Positions 17,807 to 49,747 are shown, numbered from the stretch's first letter. The stretch is DNA of 64,000 nucleotides from an uncultured bacterium (GCA_963807755.1 CAWECM010000004.1:46543-110542), one strand, 5' to 3'. Numbers and translations: made by a program. The notes: generated by a model from the letters alone, not told the origin.

Positions 17807-19009
17807 TCAGTCCAGCTGCGCCACCGACTCCCCCAGATCCGCGAAGCGATCCGCCTGCGCCTCGCGCAGGTGACGAGCGGCGAAGGCACGCGCGGACGCC
17901 ACGAGCCGCTCCCCCAACGCCGGGTCCGCACGAACCTCGCGGACCGCCTCGGCCAAGGCCTCCGGATCACCATGAGGAACGGTGAGGCCAAGGCCCTCCG
18001 TCTCGATCAGCCGCCGGAGCTCGCCCGTACAGGCCGCGACGATCGGCCGCCCGATCGCACACGCGTCGTAGAGCTTGGCCGAGACGACCAGATCCTGACG
18101 TTCGGACACGAGCACCACGTCGGCTGCGCGGAGGTGCCGTCCCGCCTCGGCAGGGGACATCAGGGGCCGCACGTCGACCTGGCCGGGCAAGGCCTCCGCC
18201 TCACGCGCGACGCCGGCGCGCCGCGGCCCCTCGCCGATGACCAGGAGGAGGTAGTCGTCGCCGAGCAGCCGTTGAGCTTCGAGCGCGTGCTCCACGCCGT
18301 GCGCGAGCCCGATGTTGCCGGCGTACGCCCAGACGAAGCGGCTCGGCGGGAGCCCGACGGCGTCCCTGTCCACCGACATGGCCCCGGCATCCAGCCACGC
18401 CTGGGTGGTCCCGTTGGCGATCGCGACGATCTGCTTCCCGGCGGGCGCCCGATCGGCGATGTACCCGGCGAAGGCGTCATTCGCCGTGACCACCGCGCTC
18501 GCCTTCGCGTAGACCCATCGCTCCATCCGTTCGAGCATGTCGGTCACCCGCCCCGGCGCGAGCTCTCCCACGGCGATCGGTGTGTACGGCCAGAGATCGC
18601 GAATGTCGAGCAGCAACGGCACGCGATGGCGCATCGCGACGAGCGCTCCGGCGGCGGCGACACTTAGCGGCGGCGAGCTGGCGACCACCAGATCCGGCCG
18701 CGACCGCAGCATGCCGGCCCCCGTCGCCAGACCGGCGTAGGAGCCGTAATAGGCAAGTCGCGTGCGCGGGGTCTTTTGCCGCGACGTGGCCACCCACAGG
18801 TAGGTCACCCGAGCGCCGCCGACGCGCCGTTGGATGCGCGGCCGCCCCCGAAAGCCGTCCTCGACGACGCCGCTGGGATGGTTGGGCACGGGGCAGACGA
18901 CGTCGACCTCGTGGCCCTTCCGCACGAACGCGTCCACGAACGCCTCGACGCGGAAGCGGCCGGCGGTTACCTCGGGCGCGTAGTGCTGGGTGAGGAGGAG
19001 AACGCGCAT
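17807..19009 (-). CDS. glycosyltransferase family 4 (WcaI/WbuB-like)
   Basis: 400 aa: MRVLLLTQHYAPEVTAGRFRVEAF..., with a GT-B C-terminal half carrying the E..G motif region. Confidence 0.8.
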   Translation of the reverse strand: MRVLLLTQHYAPEVTAGRFRVEAFVDAFVRKGHEVDVVCPVPNHPSGVVEDGFRGRPRIQRRVGGARVTYLWVATSRQKTPRTRLAYYGSYAGLATGAGMLRSRPDLVVASSPPLSVAAAGALVAMRHRVPLLLDIRDLWPYTPIAVGELAPGRVTDMLERMERWVYAKASAVVTANDAFAGYIADRAPAGKQIVAIANGTTQAWLDAGAMSVDRDAVGLPPSRFVWAYAGNIGLAHGVEHALEAQRLLGDDYLLLVIGEGPRRAGVAREAEALPGQVDVRPLMSPAEAGRHLRAADVVLVSERQDLVVSAKLYDACAIGRPIVAACTGELRRLIETEGLGLTVPHGDPEALAEAVREVRADPALGERLVASARAFAARHLREAQADRFADLGESVAQLD

Positions 19010-19046: not shown

Positions 19047-19853
19047 ATGAGCACCGGGGATGCAACCGAGGGTGGAAGCGCTACCGAGCGCGAAGCGCCG
19101 CTCCGGGTCCTCTTCATCACCGAGGACGACCCGCTCTACGTGATCGAGTTCTTCGACTCGTTCCTCGACGCATACCCGCACGAGCGCCTCGAGGTGGCCG
19201 GGATCACGATCAGCCGCGCCTTCAACGAATCACGCCTGGCCACCGCGCGGCGGGTGCTCCGCCTCTACGGCGTCGGCGACTTCGCAAAACTCGCCGCCCG
19301 CTTCGCCCAGGCGAAGCTCCGTCGCCGCTCGATCGAGTCGCTGGCCCGGCGGTCCTCGATCGCGCTGCTCCCGACCGCCTCGGTGAACGACCCTTCCTAC
19401 ATCCGCCGAGTGCGGGAGCTCGCCCCGGATGTGATCGTCTCCGTTGCCGCCCCCGAGATCTTCCGGGAGGAGCTGCTCGGATCGGCCGCGATGGGGTGCG
19501 TGAACATCCACTCGGGCCGGCTTCCGACCTACCGCGGGATGATGCCGGTGTTCTGGCAGATGCTCAATTCCGAGCCGCACGTGACGGTCACCGTGCACGA
19601 GATGGCGGCCCAGCTGGACGCTGGGGCCGTGCTCGGCACGGTCGAGCTGCCGATCCTGCCGTCGGATCGTCTTTCCCGCCTGATGGTCGAAGGCAAGCGC
19701 GAGGGCGCGCGGCTCTTGATCCGGGTGCTCGAGGACCTCGCGCAGGGCGAGGCTAACCCGAAGCCCCTGGACCTGGAGCAGGCGTCGTACTTCTCCTTCC
19801 CCGGCCCGACGGAGGCGCGCGAGCTTCGCGCCCGGGGTCACGCCCTCGTCTAG
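19047..19853 (+). CDS. formyltransferase family protein (Fmt/ArnA-N-like)
   Basis: 268 aa. NIHSGRLPTYRGMMPVFW matches the HxSLLPxxRG formyltransferase motif. Divergent from the GT4 gene. Confidence 0.75.
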   Translation: MSTGDATEGGSATEREAPLRVLFITEDDPLYVIEFFDSFLDAYPHERLEVAGITISRAFNESRLATARRVLRLYGVGDFAKLAARFAQAKLRRRSIESLARRSSIALLPTASVNDPSYIRRVRELAPDVIVSVAAPEIFREELLGSAAMGCVNIHSGRLPTYRGMMPVFWQMLNSEPHVTVTVHEMAAQLDAGAVLGTVELPILPSDRLSRLMVEGKREGARLLIRVLEDLAQGEANPKPLDLEQASYFSFPGPTEARELRARGHALV

Positions 19854-19882
19854 CGGAGCGCGCCGCGGGCTTGGAGCACGTG

Positions 19883-20746
19883 ATGACCGCCAAGGGCCCC
19901 TCGGCTGCGATGTCGATCGACGTCGAGGATTGGTTTCAGGTCGAGAACCTGAGGACCGCGATCACCCGTGAGAGCTGGAACGATCGCGAGCTTCGGGTGG
20001 AGCGCAACACCGACCGGATGCTCGAGCTGCTGGCCGAGCGCGATATCCGATGCACGTGCTTCGTGCTCGGCTGGGTGGCGGACCGCTGCCCAGCGCTGAT
20101 CCGACGGCTTGCCTCCGCCGGGCACGAGATCGCCAGCCACGGGTACGGACACGAGCTCGTGTACAGACAGACGCCATCGGAGTTTCGTGAGGACGTACGG
20201 CGGTGCAAGGTCCTGTTGGAGGACCTCGTTTCAGCGCCCGTCGTCGGCTACCGGGCGCCCAGCTTCTCGATCACGGATTGGTCCATCCCGATCCTCCAGG
20301 AGCTCGGCTTCCAATACGACTCCTCGCTCTTCCCGGCACTCGCCCATGACCGCTACGGACGCATCGCGGGCGTCGGCCCGCGCGAGCGCATCGCCGAGCT
20401 GGCGCCCGGCTTCAGCGAGGTCTGCATCTCGTCCCTGTTCGTCGGATCCCGCGCGCTCCCGTGGGGAGGCGGAGGCTACTTCCGGTTCCTGCCCTATCCC
20501 GTCTTCCGGCGCGGCGTGGCCGGCATCCTGGGCTCGGGAGAGCCGTATGTCTTCTACATCCATCCCTGGGAGATCGACCCCGGCCAGCCGCGGGTCGCCG
20601 GGCTTTCCCGAACGCACTCCTTCCGGCACTACGTCGGGCTGCGCACTGCCGAGCGCCGCTTCCGGTCGCTGCTGGGCGACTTCGCCTGGACCACCGTCGC
20701 GGACGTCCTCGCCCGGTGCGCCGACCCTAGGGCTGATAACTCGTGA
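19883..20746 (+). CDS. polysaccharide deacetylase family protein with DUF3473-type C-terminus
   Basis: SIDVEDWFQVENL, FVLGWVA, HEIASHGYGHE, YRAPSFS, WGGGGYFRFLPY. Start options are TTG 19871, GTG 19880 and ATG 19883; the ATG has a GGAG 6 nt upstream. Confidence 0.8.
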   Translation: MTAKGPSAAMSIDVEDWFQVENLRTAITRESWNDRELRVERNTDRMLELLAERDIRCTCFVLGWVADRCPALIRRLASAGHEIASHGYGHELVYRQTPSEFREDVRRCKVLLEDLVSAPVVGYRAPSFSITDWSIPILQELGFQYDSSLFPALAHDRYGRIAGVGPRERIAELAPGFSEVCISSLFVGSRALPWGGGGYFRFLPYPVFRRGVAGILGSGEPYVFYIHPWEIDPGQPRVAGLSRTHSFRHYVGLRTAERRFRSLLGDFAWTTVADVLARCADPRADNS

Positions 20747-22205
20747 TCTGGACGTTTGCGTAGTCCGTGTAGATCATCTCCTGGCGCGGCTGGCCGGGGA
20801 CGGAGCCGTCGAAGAGGTCCATGTGGTGGTACAGACCGATGCCGGCTGAGGAGCTCGGCCGGCCGCCCGTGAAGTCGATTCCCGACTGACGGCTCACCGC
20901 CTGGGTCATCGAGCCGTTCTGGTCGAGGTCGGCCCATACCTCGTACCAACCGTCCGAGTCCCAGTTGCTGACGATCGCCATCCGGATCCACTCGCCGGTC
21001 GGGACCTGGAGGATCTGGTACCTGTTTTTGTTTTCACCGTCGCGGGCGATGAACTTGATCCCGTCGGAGCCGATGGTCGCCGAGAACGGCAGGTGGCTGC
21101 CGAGACCGCCGCCGTGCGACTTGAACTGCAGCAGCTGGCTGAACTTCGAGTTGCCGCCGCCGTTCGACTGCTTGTGCGGGAAGGGCGACTCGCCGTTGGC
21201 GAGCTCCTGCAGGCGGAACGAGTAATAGAAGGCGTAGTTGCCCGGCGTGAATGACATCGGGTTGTCGGACGCCGACCACTTCTGGGTCTGGGTCCGAGTG
21301 GACTGGCTGCCGGATTTCGTCCGGTCGTAGACCGACTGCGCTCCGAGGCGGGAGATGTAGCGGCGGTAGTACGGGCTGCGCGCCGACTGTCCGACCGCCA
21401 CGTGCGGATCGCCGTCGCCCGAGCGTCGGACGACGTACGGGTCGTTGGCGGCGCTGGCGTCACAGCCATAGAGGAACGGCGTCGAGTTCGAACCCCAGAC
21501 CAAGCACGGGTTCGGCTGGGTGGCCAGGTCCTGGGAGAGGACCGTTCCGGTGCCCGGGACAACCGAAGCCGAGCCGGGGGGAACGGGCGGATCCGGTGGA
21601 TTCGGCCAATCGGGCGGATCCGGGGGATCGGGCGGATTTGGCGGATCGGGCGGATTTGGCGGATCGGGGGGATCCGGGGGATCGGGGGGATCCGGTGGAT
21701 CGGGTGGATCGGGCGGAATCGAGGGAAGGTCTACGGCAAACGACCGGGCGGCCGGGGTGGGATCGGTGTTTCCAGCCCGGTCGGTCGCCCGGACCGCGAA
21801 GGTGTGCCGGCCCTCGATCATCCTGGACACCGGCTCCGGGCTGGAGCACGCGTGCCAATCCCCTTCGTCCAGCAGGCACTCGAACGTGGAGCCGGGCTCA
21901 GAGGCAGAGAAAGCGAAGGCGCTTGCGGGCACCGGGATCGTGCCTGACGGCCCGAAGATGATCGCGGTGTCCGGCGCGATCCTGTCCCGTCGGCTGCCGT
22001 GCCAGGCCCGAGGTCGGTTCGTCTTGTGGCGCAGGCGATGCGCCTTATGGCCGCTGAACACGTCGTCCGGCTTCGTCATGGCCGCGCCGCGGGAGCTCCC
22101 GGCGCGACTGGCGTCCCGCTTCGAGTCGGCGGCGAATGCGGAAACGGCAAAAGTGAGCATCGCCGTAAGGGCGAGGGCGGTGAGGCTGCGACTGCGGTCG
22201 AACAT
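20727..22205 (-). CDS. secreted protein: signal peptide, Ig-like domain, (PPD)n linker, jelly-roll (polysaccharide-lyase/concanavalin-like) C-terminal domain
   Basis: ORF 20727..22361 trimmed to ATG 22203-22205 (MFDRSRSLTALALTAMLTFAVSAFA) with a GAGGAGAA Shine-Dalgarno sequence. GSTFECLLDEGDWHACSSP...GRHTFAVRATDRAGNTDPTPA is the Ig-like module. The lyase-like assignment for the C-terminus is only a pattern-level impression. Confidence 0.7.
   Translation of the reverse strand: MFDRSRSLTALALTAMLTFAVSAFAADSKRDASRAGSSRGAAMTKPDDVFSGHKAHRLRHKTNRPRAWHGSRRDRIAPDTAIIFGPSGTIPVPASAFAFSASEPGSTFECLLDEGDWHACSSPEPVSRMIEGRHTFAVRATDRAGNTDPTPAARSFAVDLPSIPPDPPDPPDPPDPPDPPDPPNPPDPPNPPDPPDPPDWPNPPDPPVPPGSASVVPGTGTVLSQDLATQPNPCLVWGSNSTPFLYGCDASAANDPYVVRRSGDGDPHVAVGQSARSPYYRRYISRLGAQSVYDRTKSGSQSTRTQTQKWSASDNPMSFTPGNYAFYYSFRLQELANGESPFPHKQSNGGGNSKFSQLLQFKSHGGGLGSHLPFSATIGSDGIKFIARDGENKNRYQILQVPTGEWIRMAIVSNWDSDGWYEVWADLDQNGSMTQAVSRQSGIDFTGGRPSSSAGIGLYHHMDLFDGSVPGQPRQEMIYTDYANVQITSYQP
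21585..21720 (-). repeat. about 15 tandem 9-bp units (GGATCNGGN on the plus strand) encoding PPDPPDPPN...
   Basis: Direct reading of 21585-21720. The translation is IPPDPPDPPDPPDPPDPPNPPDPPNPPDPPDPPDWPNPPDPPVPP, inside the CDS above. Confidence 0.9.
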
Positions 22206-22214
22206 CCGGTTCTC

Positions 22215-22305
22215 CTCTTCGGCGGCTGAGCCGTCTCGCTGAGCACGAGACCTCTGGCTTTGCGTCCCCGCCTCACGGCGGGTTTGCCTTGTCGGTGGAT
22301 GCCGG
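22215..22305 (-). promoter_or_regulatory. candidate c-di-GMP-I (GEMM) riboswitch in the 5' leader of the secreted protein gene
   Basis: The minus strand reads ACAAGGCAAACC-CGCC-GTGA-GGCG-GGGACGCAAAGCC-AGAG-GTCTCG-TGCTCAG-CGAGAC-GGCTCAGCCGCC. GGCAAACC and GGGACGCAAAGCC match my recollection of the most conserved GEMM-I blocks (compare Vc2: GGGCAAACC-AUUC-GAAA-GAGU-GGGACGCAAAGCC). The first hairpin is capped by a GNRA loop and a second hairpin follows. The motif ends about 10 nt before the Shine-Dalgarno sequence. Confidence 0.65.
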
Positions 22306-22511
22306 TCCCTCGGCCCCACGTTTTGTGAGTCTTTCCCTAAGGCTCGGTTTCCAAACCTCAAAACTTGAGAAAAGCTGCAACCGACCGGAACGTCCGTCCA
22401 ATCGCCCTGGGCGGAGTCTTGCGCGCAGGCGGGCGCCGGAACCTTCGAGTTCGGCCTAAAGCAGAGAGTTAGTGTTCGCCGATCTCACCCGGTCCGCGCC
22501 CCCGATAGAGC

Positions 22512-22537
22512 GAGAGCCCCGCCGGGCGGGGCTCTCG
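22512..22537 (-). terminator. GC-rich stem-loop downstream of the PepSY gene
   Basis: GAGAGCCCCGCC-GG-GCGGGGCTCTC hairpin, 24 nt after the stop at 22561. No clear T-tract. Confidence 0.4.
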
Positions 22538-22560
22538 GAGCTCAGCGGCTTGCGCGGGCA

Positions 22561-22893
22561 TCAGCCCTCGTCGGCCTCGTCCTCCTCGCCGTCGTCGGCC
22601 TCGTCGCCGACCACGTTGAACGAGCGGTCGAGCTGCACGTCGGTCTGGCTGCCGTCTTCCAGGGTCACCTCGACCTCGTAGTAGCTCTCCTCGTCGCCGA
22701 CCTCGGTGCCGGTCACCTGGCCGCCGCCGGTGTGCTCGAGCGCCGCGGCGCTCGCGCTCTCGAGGGCGGTGCCGGAGATCGGCTTCTCGGAGGCGTCGTC
22801 ATCGGCGCCGGTGCCGAGGGCAACGCCTGCGCCGCCGGCCGCGATCGCGGCTGCGGCGACGCCGCTGATCAGGATCTTCGTTCGCTTGGTCAT
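22561..22893 (-). CDS. PepSY domain-containing protein
   Basis: 110 aa. N-terminal TM/signal MTKRTKILISGVAAAAIAAGG. ALESASAAALEHTGGGQVTGTEVGDEESYYEVEVTLEDGSQTDVQLD fits the PepSY pattern. Acidic tail and AGGAGGAA Shine-Dalgarno sequence. Confidence 0.7.
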   Translation of the reverse strand: MTKRTKILISGVAAAAIAAGGAGVALGTGADDDASEKPISGTALESASAAALEHTGGGQVTGTEVGDEESYYEVEVTLEDGSQTDVQLDRSFNVVGDEADDGEEDEADEG

Positions 22894-49673: not shown

Positions 49674-49747
49674 AGCGGCTGATCGGATTCGAACCGACGA
49701 CCTTCTGCATGGCAAGCAGACGCTCTAGCCAACTGAGCTACAGCCGC
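49674..49747 (-). tRNA. tRNA-Gly (anticodon GCC)
   Basis: Folded by hand: GCGGCTG/CAGCCGC acceptor, TCTGC-TTGCCAT-GCAGA anticodon arm, GTCGG-TTCGAAT-CCGAT T arm, discriminator T. 74 nt. Confidence 0.9.

Follow-up and report, generated by a model that had tools for sequence, protein, structure and literature searches.

The region analysed, referred to as the window, is a stretch of 64,000 nucleotides from an uncultured bacterium with a G+C content of 69.7%. The locus of interest comprises a gene on the minus strand coding for a protein of 492 amino acids with a signal peptide, the intergenic space in front of it and three neighbouring genes:

17807..19009, minus strand: GT4 gene, neighbour
19047..19853, plus strand: Formyl_trans_N gene, neighbour
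19871..20746, plus strand: Polysacc_deac_1+DUF3473 gene, neighbour
20727..22205, minus strand: the putatively regulated gene, whose 492-aa product has a signal peptide, an Ig domain of the Big_13 type, PDP/PNP repeats and, at the C-terminus, a predicted beta-jelly-roll resembling PL20 lyases
22372..22400, minus strand: candidate promoter of low confidence, TGGACG (22400..22395), 17 nt, CAGCTT (22377..22372)
22511..22537, minus strand: GC-rich hairpin of 11 bp, similar to a terminator, behind the stop codon (22563..22561) of the PepSY-like gene upstream

The genes upstream of the leader encode a PepSY-like protein (110 aa), an ABC-2 permease/ATPase pair and a LuxR-type response regulator. A preliminary description of the locus had placed a candidate riboswitch in the leader of a secreted PDP-repeat, lyase-like gene flanked by glycan-modifying genes, and both parts of this placement were borne out, the former by the features of the protein described below and the latter by the adjoining Polysacc_deac_1/DUF3473, Formyl_trans_N and GT4 genes. 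The length of roughly 300 nt given there for the leader needs correction: the intergenic space (355 nt, 22206..22560) also holds the terminator-like hairpin of the upstream gene (22537..22511), at which transcription of the upstream unit probably ends, and counted from the candidate promoter the leader would comprise about 160 nt. Conservation of the leader among orthologues starts near 22420, and the candidate promoter is kept in 7/7 aligned leaders, including the spacers of two paralogues lacking an aptamer (L008, L009), and within the second hexamer neither the second base (A) nor the sixth (T) varies among these seven leaders. A scan with the sigma-70 consensus called no promoter here, the candidate TGGACG-17-CAGCTT included.

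The 492-aa protein starts with a Sec-type signal peptide (MFDRSRSLTALALTAMLTFAVSAFA/AD), followed by a weak match to the Big_13 Ig-like domain (20 bits) and by PDP/PNP repeats of about 45 residues. No exact copy of the sequence was found in the protein collection searched. The C-terminal part reached 25.1 bits with PF14099, which is below the gathering score of 29.9, and precomputed annotation assigns PF14099 to many homologues, with several of these assignments marked as weak. When PDB sequences were searched with a profile of the C-terminal domain, no relative came up. An AF2 model of the C-terminal 278 aa built with 29 homologues gave a beta sandwich (pLDDT 64, pTM 0.71), whose best match in the PDB was the PL20 glucuronan lyase 2ZZJ (E 1.9e-8, TM 0.43-0.49), behind which came PL7 alginate lyases as well as toxin Hc and jelly rolls of lectin-like proteins. 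A beta-jelly-roll is predicted, for which the 2ZZJ and PL7 lyases are the leading matches among other jelly rolls; sequence identity is about 14% or less, the model is of medium confidence and the Pfam score stays below the cutoff. At the level of the predicted fold, the label 'lyase-like' appears reasonable.

A cmscan of the whole window revealed a full-length match to the Rfam c-di-GMP-I clan CL00126 at 22297..22217 on the minus strand. The top family was RF03167, with 66.2 bits against a gathering score of 59 (E 2e-13) and coverage of model positions 1-80 of 80; one further CL00126 family scored above its own gathering score at the same place, with a lower score. This match is far beyond chance. 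In a permissive Rfam scan of 22000..22700, the class II c-di-GMP family RF01786 gave no match even at E<=10; otherwise, weak sub-threshold matches to terminator-containing Rfam models appeared at the hairpin further upstream. Membership in the class I c-di-GMP riboswitches is near certain, in agreement with the GEMM identity proposed in the preliminary description; the RF01051 model named there for the search is not the best-scoring one, although the clan match as such lies above the gathering score. The string transcribed there was found exactly (ACAAGGCAAACC...GGC, 22292..22230, minus strand), as were the two core blocks GGCAAACC (22288..22281) and GGGACGCAAAGCC (22268..22256), the 6-bp hairpin with a GUGA (GNRA) loop between them (22282..22267) and the second, GC-rich hairpin that follows. 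The 3' end had been set too early: the aptamer continues past GGC (22230) via GCUCAGCC-GC-CG, so that the 3' strand of P1 (22221..22220) ends 2 nt, and not about 10 nt, from the Shine-Dalgarno (SD) sequence GAGGAG (22217..22212), and the gap between aptamer and AUG amounts to 14 nt. In our reading the functional core, from P1 to P1, spans 22294..22220. The parts of the aptamer are as follows:

22217..22297, minus strand: c-di-GMP-I (GEMM-I) aptamer in the Rfam limits, also present in orthologues
22293..22294, minus strand: 5' strand of P1 (CG), from a parse of 199 related aptamers
22292..22289, minus strand: J1/2 (ACAA, 4 nt), following the 5' strand of P1
22262..22287, minus strand: P2, with junction pairs G22287:C22262 and C22286:G22263 and a 6-bp stem CCCGCC/GGCGGG
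22276..22273, minus strand: GUGA tetraloop of P2
22224..22259, minus strand: P3 hairpin in the Rfam register, lacking the 11-nt tetraloop receptor
22220..22221, minus strand: 3' strand of P1 (CG), directly after G22223-C22222

The element lies in cis to the 492-aa gene, on the same strand and in its 5' leader, and elements of a putative expression platform are present. Orthologues were collected by finding homologues of the downstream protein and fetching their contigs. One of them (L001) is syntenic over the PepSY-like gene, the leader with its gene, the deacetylase, the formyltransferase, GT4, NfeD and a tRNA, and contains the aptamer, which is also present in L005, L006 and L007. In the distant L250, from an NCBI assembly, the protein shows 29% identity with 99% of the query covered, the aptamer directly precedes the ATG and the neighbours are sulfotransferases and a GT4. 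Both core blocks and their pairing are kept in the orthologous leaders. No aptamer was found in front of lyase-like-domain paralogues that are internal genes of operons (P0012, P0018) or belong to tandem arrays (L008, L009); the paralogue P0018 is located outside the window.

The secondary structure of the aptamer was evaluated with relatives from a wider sample. RNAalifold applied to 42 diverse relatives (with the window as the first row) predicted P2 and P3 unaided, including the two G-C junction pairs, and compensatory changes were seen in 11/19 predicted pairs, namely in 3/8 pairs of P2 and 8/11 pairs of P3. The window forms all 19 pairs with the exception of two at the base of P3, where the Rfam register opposes C22256 to A22227 and A22259 to C22224. 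C22264 and G22231 correspond to the two partners of the interhelical C44-G83 pair. P1 consists of only 2 bp in the window (CG:CG, 22294..22293 with 22221..22220) and is canonical in 92% (pair 1) and 91% (pair 2) of the 199 related aptamers, with CG/UA/UG variation. J1/2 usually comprises 5 nt and is 4 nt long, as in the window, in 40/199 relatives.

A short P1, a shortened J1/2, a P3 whose base contains two non-canonical pairs and an anti-SD that is weakened in the window (see below) are what a decaying, non-functional copy left behind by a large expansion of the aptamer lineage would look like. We give this explanation next to no credence: every ligand-contact and junction nucleotide is intact, and the aptamer, the P0 hairpin and the SD helix described below are kept across orthologues down to 29% protein identity. 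Of the 199 relatives, a sample biased by the search pattern, 81 show the same C-A and 83 the same A-C combination at the base of P3, and these mismatches are therefore a trait of the subclass rather than a sign of decay.

The top score of RF03167, the c-di-GMP-I-GGC family, raises the question of whether the binding pocket is that of the parent class. This variant was defined by Weinberg et al. (2017, PNAS 114:E2077). The consensus of RF03167 differs from that of RF01051 at a single conserved junction base, the one following GACGC, which is G in the former and A in the latter; the window has A22261 at this place (GACGC-A-AAGCC versus GACGC-G-AAgCc in RF03167). The window bases were assigned Vc2 numbers by our own count along the Vc2 crystal construct and by the alignment to the model:

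22288, minus strand: equivalent of Vc2 G20, first G of GGCAAACC
22261, minus strand: equivalent of Vc2 A47, A in the window and G in the RF03167 consensus
22222, minus strand: equivalent of Vc2 C92, the C directly before the 3' strand of P1, C in 199/199 parsed relatives

Residues G20, A47 and C92 contact c-di-GMP (PMC4744006, PMC5888326): G20 pairs with one guanine of the ligand (PMC5888326, PMC4744006) and C92 forms a Watson-Crick pair with the other (PMC5888326). Judging from the consensus, the 'GGC' in the name of RF03167 presumably denotes G20/G47/C92. In the window, all three bases of the parent-class triad are present (G22288, A22261 and C22222), and A47 is kept in all orthologues of the window that were examined. 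A was found at this position in all 127 pattern matches listed, which stem from four orthologue loci and a scan of a genome collection with R allowed in the pattern, and GACGCGAAGC was absent from all 249 fetched loci.

Membership in the variant class, with an altered pocket and a ligand that is maybe not c-di-GMP, would explain why RF03167 is the top family in the window (66.2 bits against a gathering score of 59) and likewise in L001, L005 and L007. We consider it very unlikely, as the sole diagnostic junction base is A and not G in the window and in the 127 matches just described, as GACGCGAAGC is missing from the 249 loci, and as RF01051 is the best-scoring model for L006, a near-identical orthologue, and for the distant L250 (59.4 and 53.4 bits, respectively, gathering score 35). 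Furthermore, among 27 scanned aptamers with A47, 19 were assigned to RF03167 and 8 to RF01051. Since canonical aptamers are so frequently given the RF03167 label, the label has no value for identifying the variant, and the model mostly rewards the P1 it includes and the receptor-less P3; these features, and not the pocket, also seem to be the reason why RF03167 wins in the window. A best match to RF03167 in an annotation need therefore not mean a variant binding pocket. On account of the parent-class triad, supported by the scores of L006 and L250, the element is filed under canonical c-di-GMP-I.

The same scaffold could also serve a sensor of 3'3'-cGAMP (GEMM-Ib) or one promiscuous between cyclic dinucleotides. 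Some GEMM-I RNAs with G20 are reported to bind both ligands (Kellenberger 2015 and Nelson 2015, both cited in PMC7266159). Selectivity for cGAMP is set at a position which we take to be position 20. The window and all relatives collected have G there, a base that was fixed by the search patterns, so that its uniformity does not amount to a survey. Variants selective for cGAMP differ at the nucleotide in contact with the ligand's G or A base (PMC9481103); with G kept there, a sensor of cGAMP, or a promiscuous one, is held to be highly improbable.

Compared with Vc2 of Vibrio cholerae, the prototype of RF01051 (PDB 3IRW), the canonical element in the window has the same three helices, the GGCAAACC and GGGACGCAAAGCC junction blocks, a GNRA loop on P2, the equivalents of G20, A47 and C92, the partners of the C44-G83 pair and a location in the leader of a gene for a secreted protein. 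Unlike Vc2, it lacks the pair of GAAA tetraloop and 11-nt receptor, having instead a GUGA loop and a plain GC-rich P3, and it shows a P1 of 2 bp, a J1/2 of 4 nt and a P3 in whose base C faces A and A faces C. The RF03167 variant gives it the best covariance-model score; the element shares with this variant the receptor-less P3, the short modelled P1 and the GC-rich stems, and differs in that the conserved G47 of the model is replaced by A in the window and its orthologues, giving the parent-class pocket.

Between the aptamer and the AUG, neither a terminator nor a promoter was called. The only terminator-like site returned by the scan lies on the plus strand, where it is P2 read as its reverse complement, and was rejected as an artefact. 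The preliminary description had suggested translational control, and the aptamer indeed abuts the SD with no terminator in between. The elements of the putative expression platform surround the aptamer:

22295..22319, minus strand: P0 hairpin, GUGGGGCCG-AGGGAC-CGGC(A)UCCAC, whose 3' strand is the anti-SD (local fold -13.7 kcal/mol)
22297..22305, minus strand: anti-SD CCGGCAUCC, pairing UCC:GGA (22215..22213) and CCGG:CCGG (22209..22206)
22212..22217, minus strand: GAGGAG (Shine-Dalgarno), separated from P1 by 2 nt and from the AUG by 6 nt, kept in orthologues
22203..22205, minus strand: start codon ATG, directly followed by the signal peptide, with MF(D/Q)R kept in orthologues

P0 and the helix formed by anti-SD and SD are mutually exclusive, and the latter is collinear with P1. 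In the orthologues, the counterpart of the anti-SD is CCGGCCUCC, located directly 5' of P1. Across window and orthologues, UCC or CUCC of this segment can pair with GGA or GGAG, and its CCGG with the CCGG in front of the AUG. The predicted energy of the anti-SD:SD duplex (RNAduplex) is -11.0 kcal/mol in the window, a value reached by 1% of shuffled 5' flanks, and ranges from -12.7 to -18.2 kcal/mol in five orthologues (L006 was left out); over the window and these five, 0.2 to 2% of shuffled flanks reach the native energies. The predicted energies of P0 lie between -13.7 and -20.6 kcal/mol in the window and orthologues. When the native P1 and the junction pairs were enforced, the best fold of every orthologue paired the anti-SD with the SD. 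The enforced fold of the window has -49.4 kcal/mol versus -46.8 kcal/mol with the SD forced open, a gap of 2.6 kcal/mol, and the same gap is 3.9 to 8.0 kcal/mol in L001, L005, L007, L180, L051, L097 and L124. The window has the smallest gap and carries a C-to-A change in its anti-SD (CAUCC versus CCUCC in the orthologues), leaving 3 instead of 4 pairs with the SD. In unconstrained folds, the window and L001 form P0 and the SD is roughly half-open, whereas the SD is already sequestered in the unconstrained minimum free energy (MFE) folds of L005 and L007.

For the comparative analysis of the platform, an alignment of seven leaders turned out to consist of near-identical rows without statistical weight, and MAFFT misregistered L250 and L180; duplex and constraint folding were used instead. 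P0 is kept in L001, L005, L006 and L007, and in L250 with a G:C to A:U change. The anti-SD helix of L250 is formed in a shifted register (UCUC:GAGA and CCGG:CCGG) with a spacer shorter by 1 nt, and L180 has GGCC...GGCC in place of CCGG...CCGG (GGCCUUC:GGAGGCC). As the leaders are too similar for covariation statistics, the support for P0 and the anti-SD helix consists of this one G:C to A:U change and of the register shifts in L250 and L180. Among the 199 relatives, CUCC or CCUC occurs within 10 nt 5' of P1 in 13/35 aptamers with an SD at most 5 nt from P1 and in 6/164 others (Fisher p 2e-7, not corrected for relatedness). By eye, P0-like hairpins were seen in L180, L135, L178, L038 and L124, and an upstream hairpin with an SD-mimicking 5' strand in L135, L178, L038, L124 and at the second aptamer on L088.

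Taken as a whole, we favour, with a probability of roughly 0.6, a canonical c-di-GMP-I riboswitch that turns off translation initiation of the secreted polysaccharide-lyase-like protein. In the ligand-free state, the anti-SD CCGGCAUCC would be held in P0, the proposed anti-sequestor, which keeps the SD accessible. Binding of c-di-GMP would close the aptamer and the 2-bp P1, and the helix would continue outward into UCC:GGA of the SD and CCGG:CCGG just before the AUG, so that the ribosome-binding site would be masked and translation turned down. Nearest-neighbour folding and comparative anatomy together make OFF the likely direction of control. With no terminator between aptamer and AUG, effects on the transcript level through Rho termination or mRNA decay are expected to be secondary. 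Points counting against this explanation are the P1 of only 2 bp, the J1/2 that is one nucleotide short and the weakened anti-SD of the window; moreover, the ligand-free ON state is less certain for L005 and L007 because their SD-sequestered fold is the unconstrained MFE.

Precedents exist for the proposed mode of action. Vc2 is reported to repress translation by masking of the ribosome-binding site (Inuzuka et al. 2018, Genes Cells 23:435, as cited in PMC11705072), and according to the same account the masked site is distant from the Vc2 aptamer, whereas the SD in the window follows P1 after 2 nt. In OFF riboswitches of the sequestor/anti-sequestor type (many SAM, TPP and preQ1 riboswitches, and Vc2 in the account of Inuzuka 2018), P1 likewise extends into an anti-SD:SD helix and a competing upstream hairpin captures the anti-SD when no ligand is bound. 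Their platform lies downstream, whereas that of the window would enclose the aptamer: P0 and the anti-SD would flank it 5', the SD 3'.

The opposite polarity, or an action mainly on mRNA stability or Rho termination, with the ligand freeing the SD or leaving it untouched, was also weighed. The SD is paired in the unconstrained MFE folds of L005 and L007, from which another rearrangement could release it, and enzymes that process polysaccharides are frequently expressed together with matrix synthesis when c-di-GMP is high. Both polarities are known among GEMM-I riboswitches (for example PMC9262584, PMC4744006). Since the anti-SD:SD helix continues the native P1 in line, closure of the aptamer can only reinforce this helix, and no competing anti-SD of comparable strength is present inside the aptamer. 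The order of SD-mimic hairpin, anti-SD, aptamer and SD, which recurs in independent lineages, fits an OFF design, and we therefore hold an ON switch or a mainly transcript-level mechanism to be unlikely, with a minor share of probability left to it.

A motif screen detected no GGDEF motif in the ORFs of at least 150 aa in the 64-kb window, and the use of c-di-GMP by the organism is therefore assumed; EAL-like matches in this screen came from a loose pattern. The riboswitch is a further member of one of the commonest riboswitch classes and leaves the knowledge of the class unchanged. Its interest lies in the testable pair of receptor and target that it offers for c-di-GMP signalling in Thermoleophilia/Solirubrobacterales-like soil bacteria, which are mostly known from metagenomes and in which few regulatory circuits have been studied. 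The pair joins the second messenger to an extracellular lyase-like enzyme encoded beside glycan-modifying genes, and the compact platform of P0, anti-SD, aptamer and SD makes it a clean candidate for mechanistic and synthetic-biology work on translational c-di-GMP switches.

A more far-reaching idea, which we put forward tentatively and hold to be possible though clearly short of an even chance, is that the receptor-less GEMM-I lineage has expanded into a master post-transcriptional switch of the secretome in Solirubrobacterales-like soil Actinomycetota and that the present copy is a dispersal brake, which would repress a matrix-cleaving enzyme at high c-di-GMP. Its targets may comprise proteins of the lyase-like, beta-helix, subtilase, lectin-like and collagen-like types together with a large Pfam-less secreted family of about 220 aa; a shifted ligand preference of the lineage preferred by the Rfam variant model would be a less likely part of this idea. 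A metagenome scan for the same type of P3 returned at least 120 loci, and among the listed loci with this P3 type 97 allowed a downstream ORF to be called. Signal-peptide-like N-termini were found in 87 of these 97 ORFs, and 48 belong to the Pfam-less family of about 220 aa. The other downstream products include Laminin_G_3 proteins, a PF14099 lyase with RTX repeats (L178), a subtilase, a beta-helix protein (L051), a Vgb_lyase-type propeller and collagen-like proteins, a spectrum that fits the classical link of GEMM elements to secreted and surface proteins.

At the position that defines the c-di-GMP-I-GGC variant (equivalent to A47 of Vc2), 27 aptamers carry the A of the parent class, and 19 of them were nevertheless scored higher by the variant model RF03167 than by the parent model RF01051. 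These 19 comprise the window aptamer (22217-22297, minus strand) and those of the fetched loci L001, L005, L007, L029, L124, L035, L058, L013, L051, L025, L075, L089, L044, L061, L120, L178, L180 and L135. Among GC-rich soil bacteria, automated annotation will therefore assign many canonical c-di-GMP-I riboswitches wrongly to the variant.

When called mechanically, the reading frame of the lyase-like gene extends in frame across the whole aptamer and reaches as far as the TTG at 22361 (20727-22361, minus strand; 544 aa), so that gene callers could absorb the riboswitch into the coding sequence. The window copy is a single intact frame of 492 aa, unlike the syntenic orthologue (L001:3228-4816), which was called as two overlapping genes of 271 aa with the break inside the PDP-repeat region; a frameshift, or else misassembly of the repeat, would account for this. 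No exact copy of the 492-aa window sequence was found in the protein collection.

Upstream of the aptamer, the motif TGGACG-17 nt-CAGCTT (22372-22400, minus strand) is kept in all seven aligned leaders and is a possible promoter, in which case the leader would measure about 160 nt. Two short motifs follow downstream of it: CCGA at 22346..22343, which is invariant, and TTAG/ATAG near 22340..22337. The lyase-like gene also occurs as tandem paralogues separated by a 75-nt spacer (L008:700-900 and L009:200-380). This spacer retains the upstream motif as TGGACG...CAGGTT/TAGGTT and has CCGGGC immediately 5' of the ATG; the TTAG/ATAG motif, the upstream hairpin P0, the aptamer and the Shine-Dalgarno sequence are all absent. 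The presence of the riboswitch thus varies inside one gene family. In the distant orthologue (L250:1885-1967), the P2 loop is CUGA rather than GNRA and the second P1 pair is C-C, yet the anti-Shine-Dalgarno helix is a near-perfect 8 bp.

The window's aptamer lineage was also observed upstream of a large secreted-protein family, with products of roughly 220 aa (metagenome loci L130-L249, e.g. L156:4227-4287 and downstream), which accounts for 48 of the 97 callable downstream ORFs among the matches listed. Its members begin with MFS/MFP and have no Pfam match. Their expression platform often differs, i.e. GGAGG lies within a small hairpin about 15 nt past P1 and the start codon is GTG.

Further RNA features of the window are:

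22511-22537, minus strand: 11-bp GC-rich hairpin, 24 nt downstream of the PepSY-like gene (22561..22893) and its stop codon
15736-15808, minus strand: tRNA gene adjoining the acetyltransferase/NfeD/GT4 block, as in syntenic L001
34138-34208, minus strand: tRNA gene
49674-49747, minus strand: tRNA gene

A match to the Rfam L17-Actino-Proteobacteria leader at another fetched locus (L002:4104-4155, minus strand; 36.6 bits, E 0.048) lies antisense within the lyase-like coding sequence and is almost certainly a false positive. The 11-bp hairpin lacks a U tract and is probably a terminator of the kind common in high-GC bacteria.
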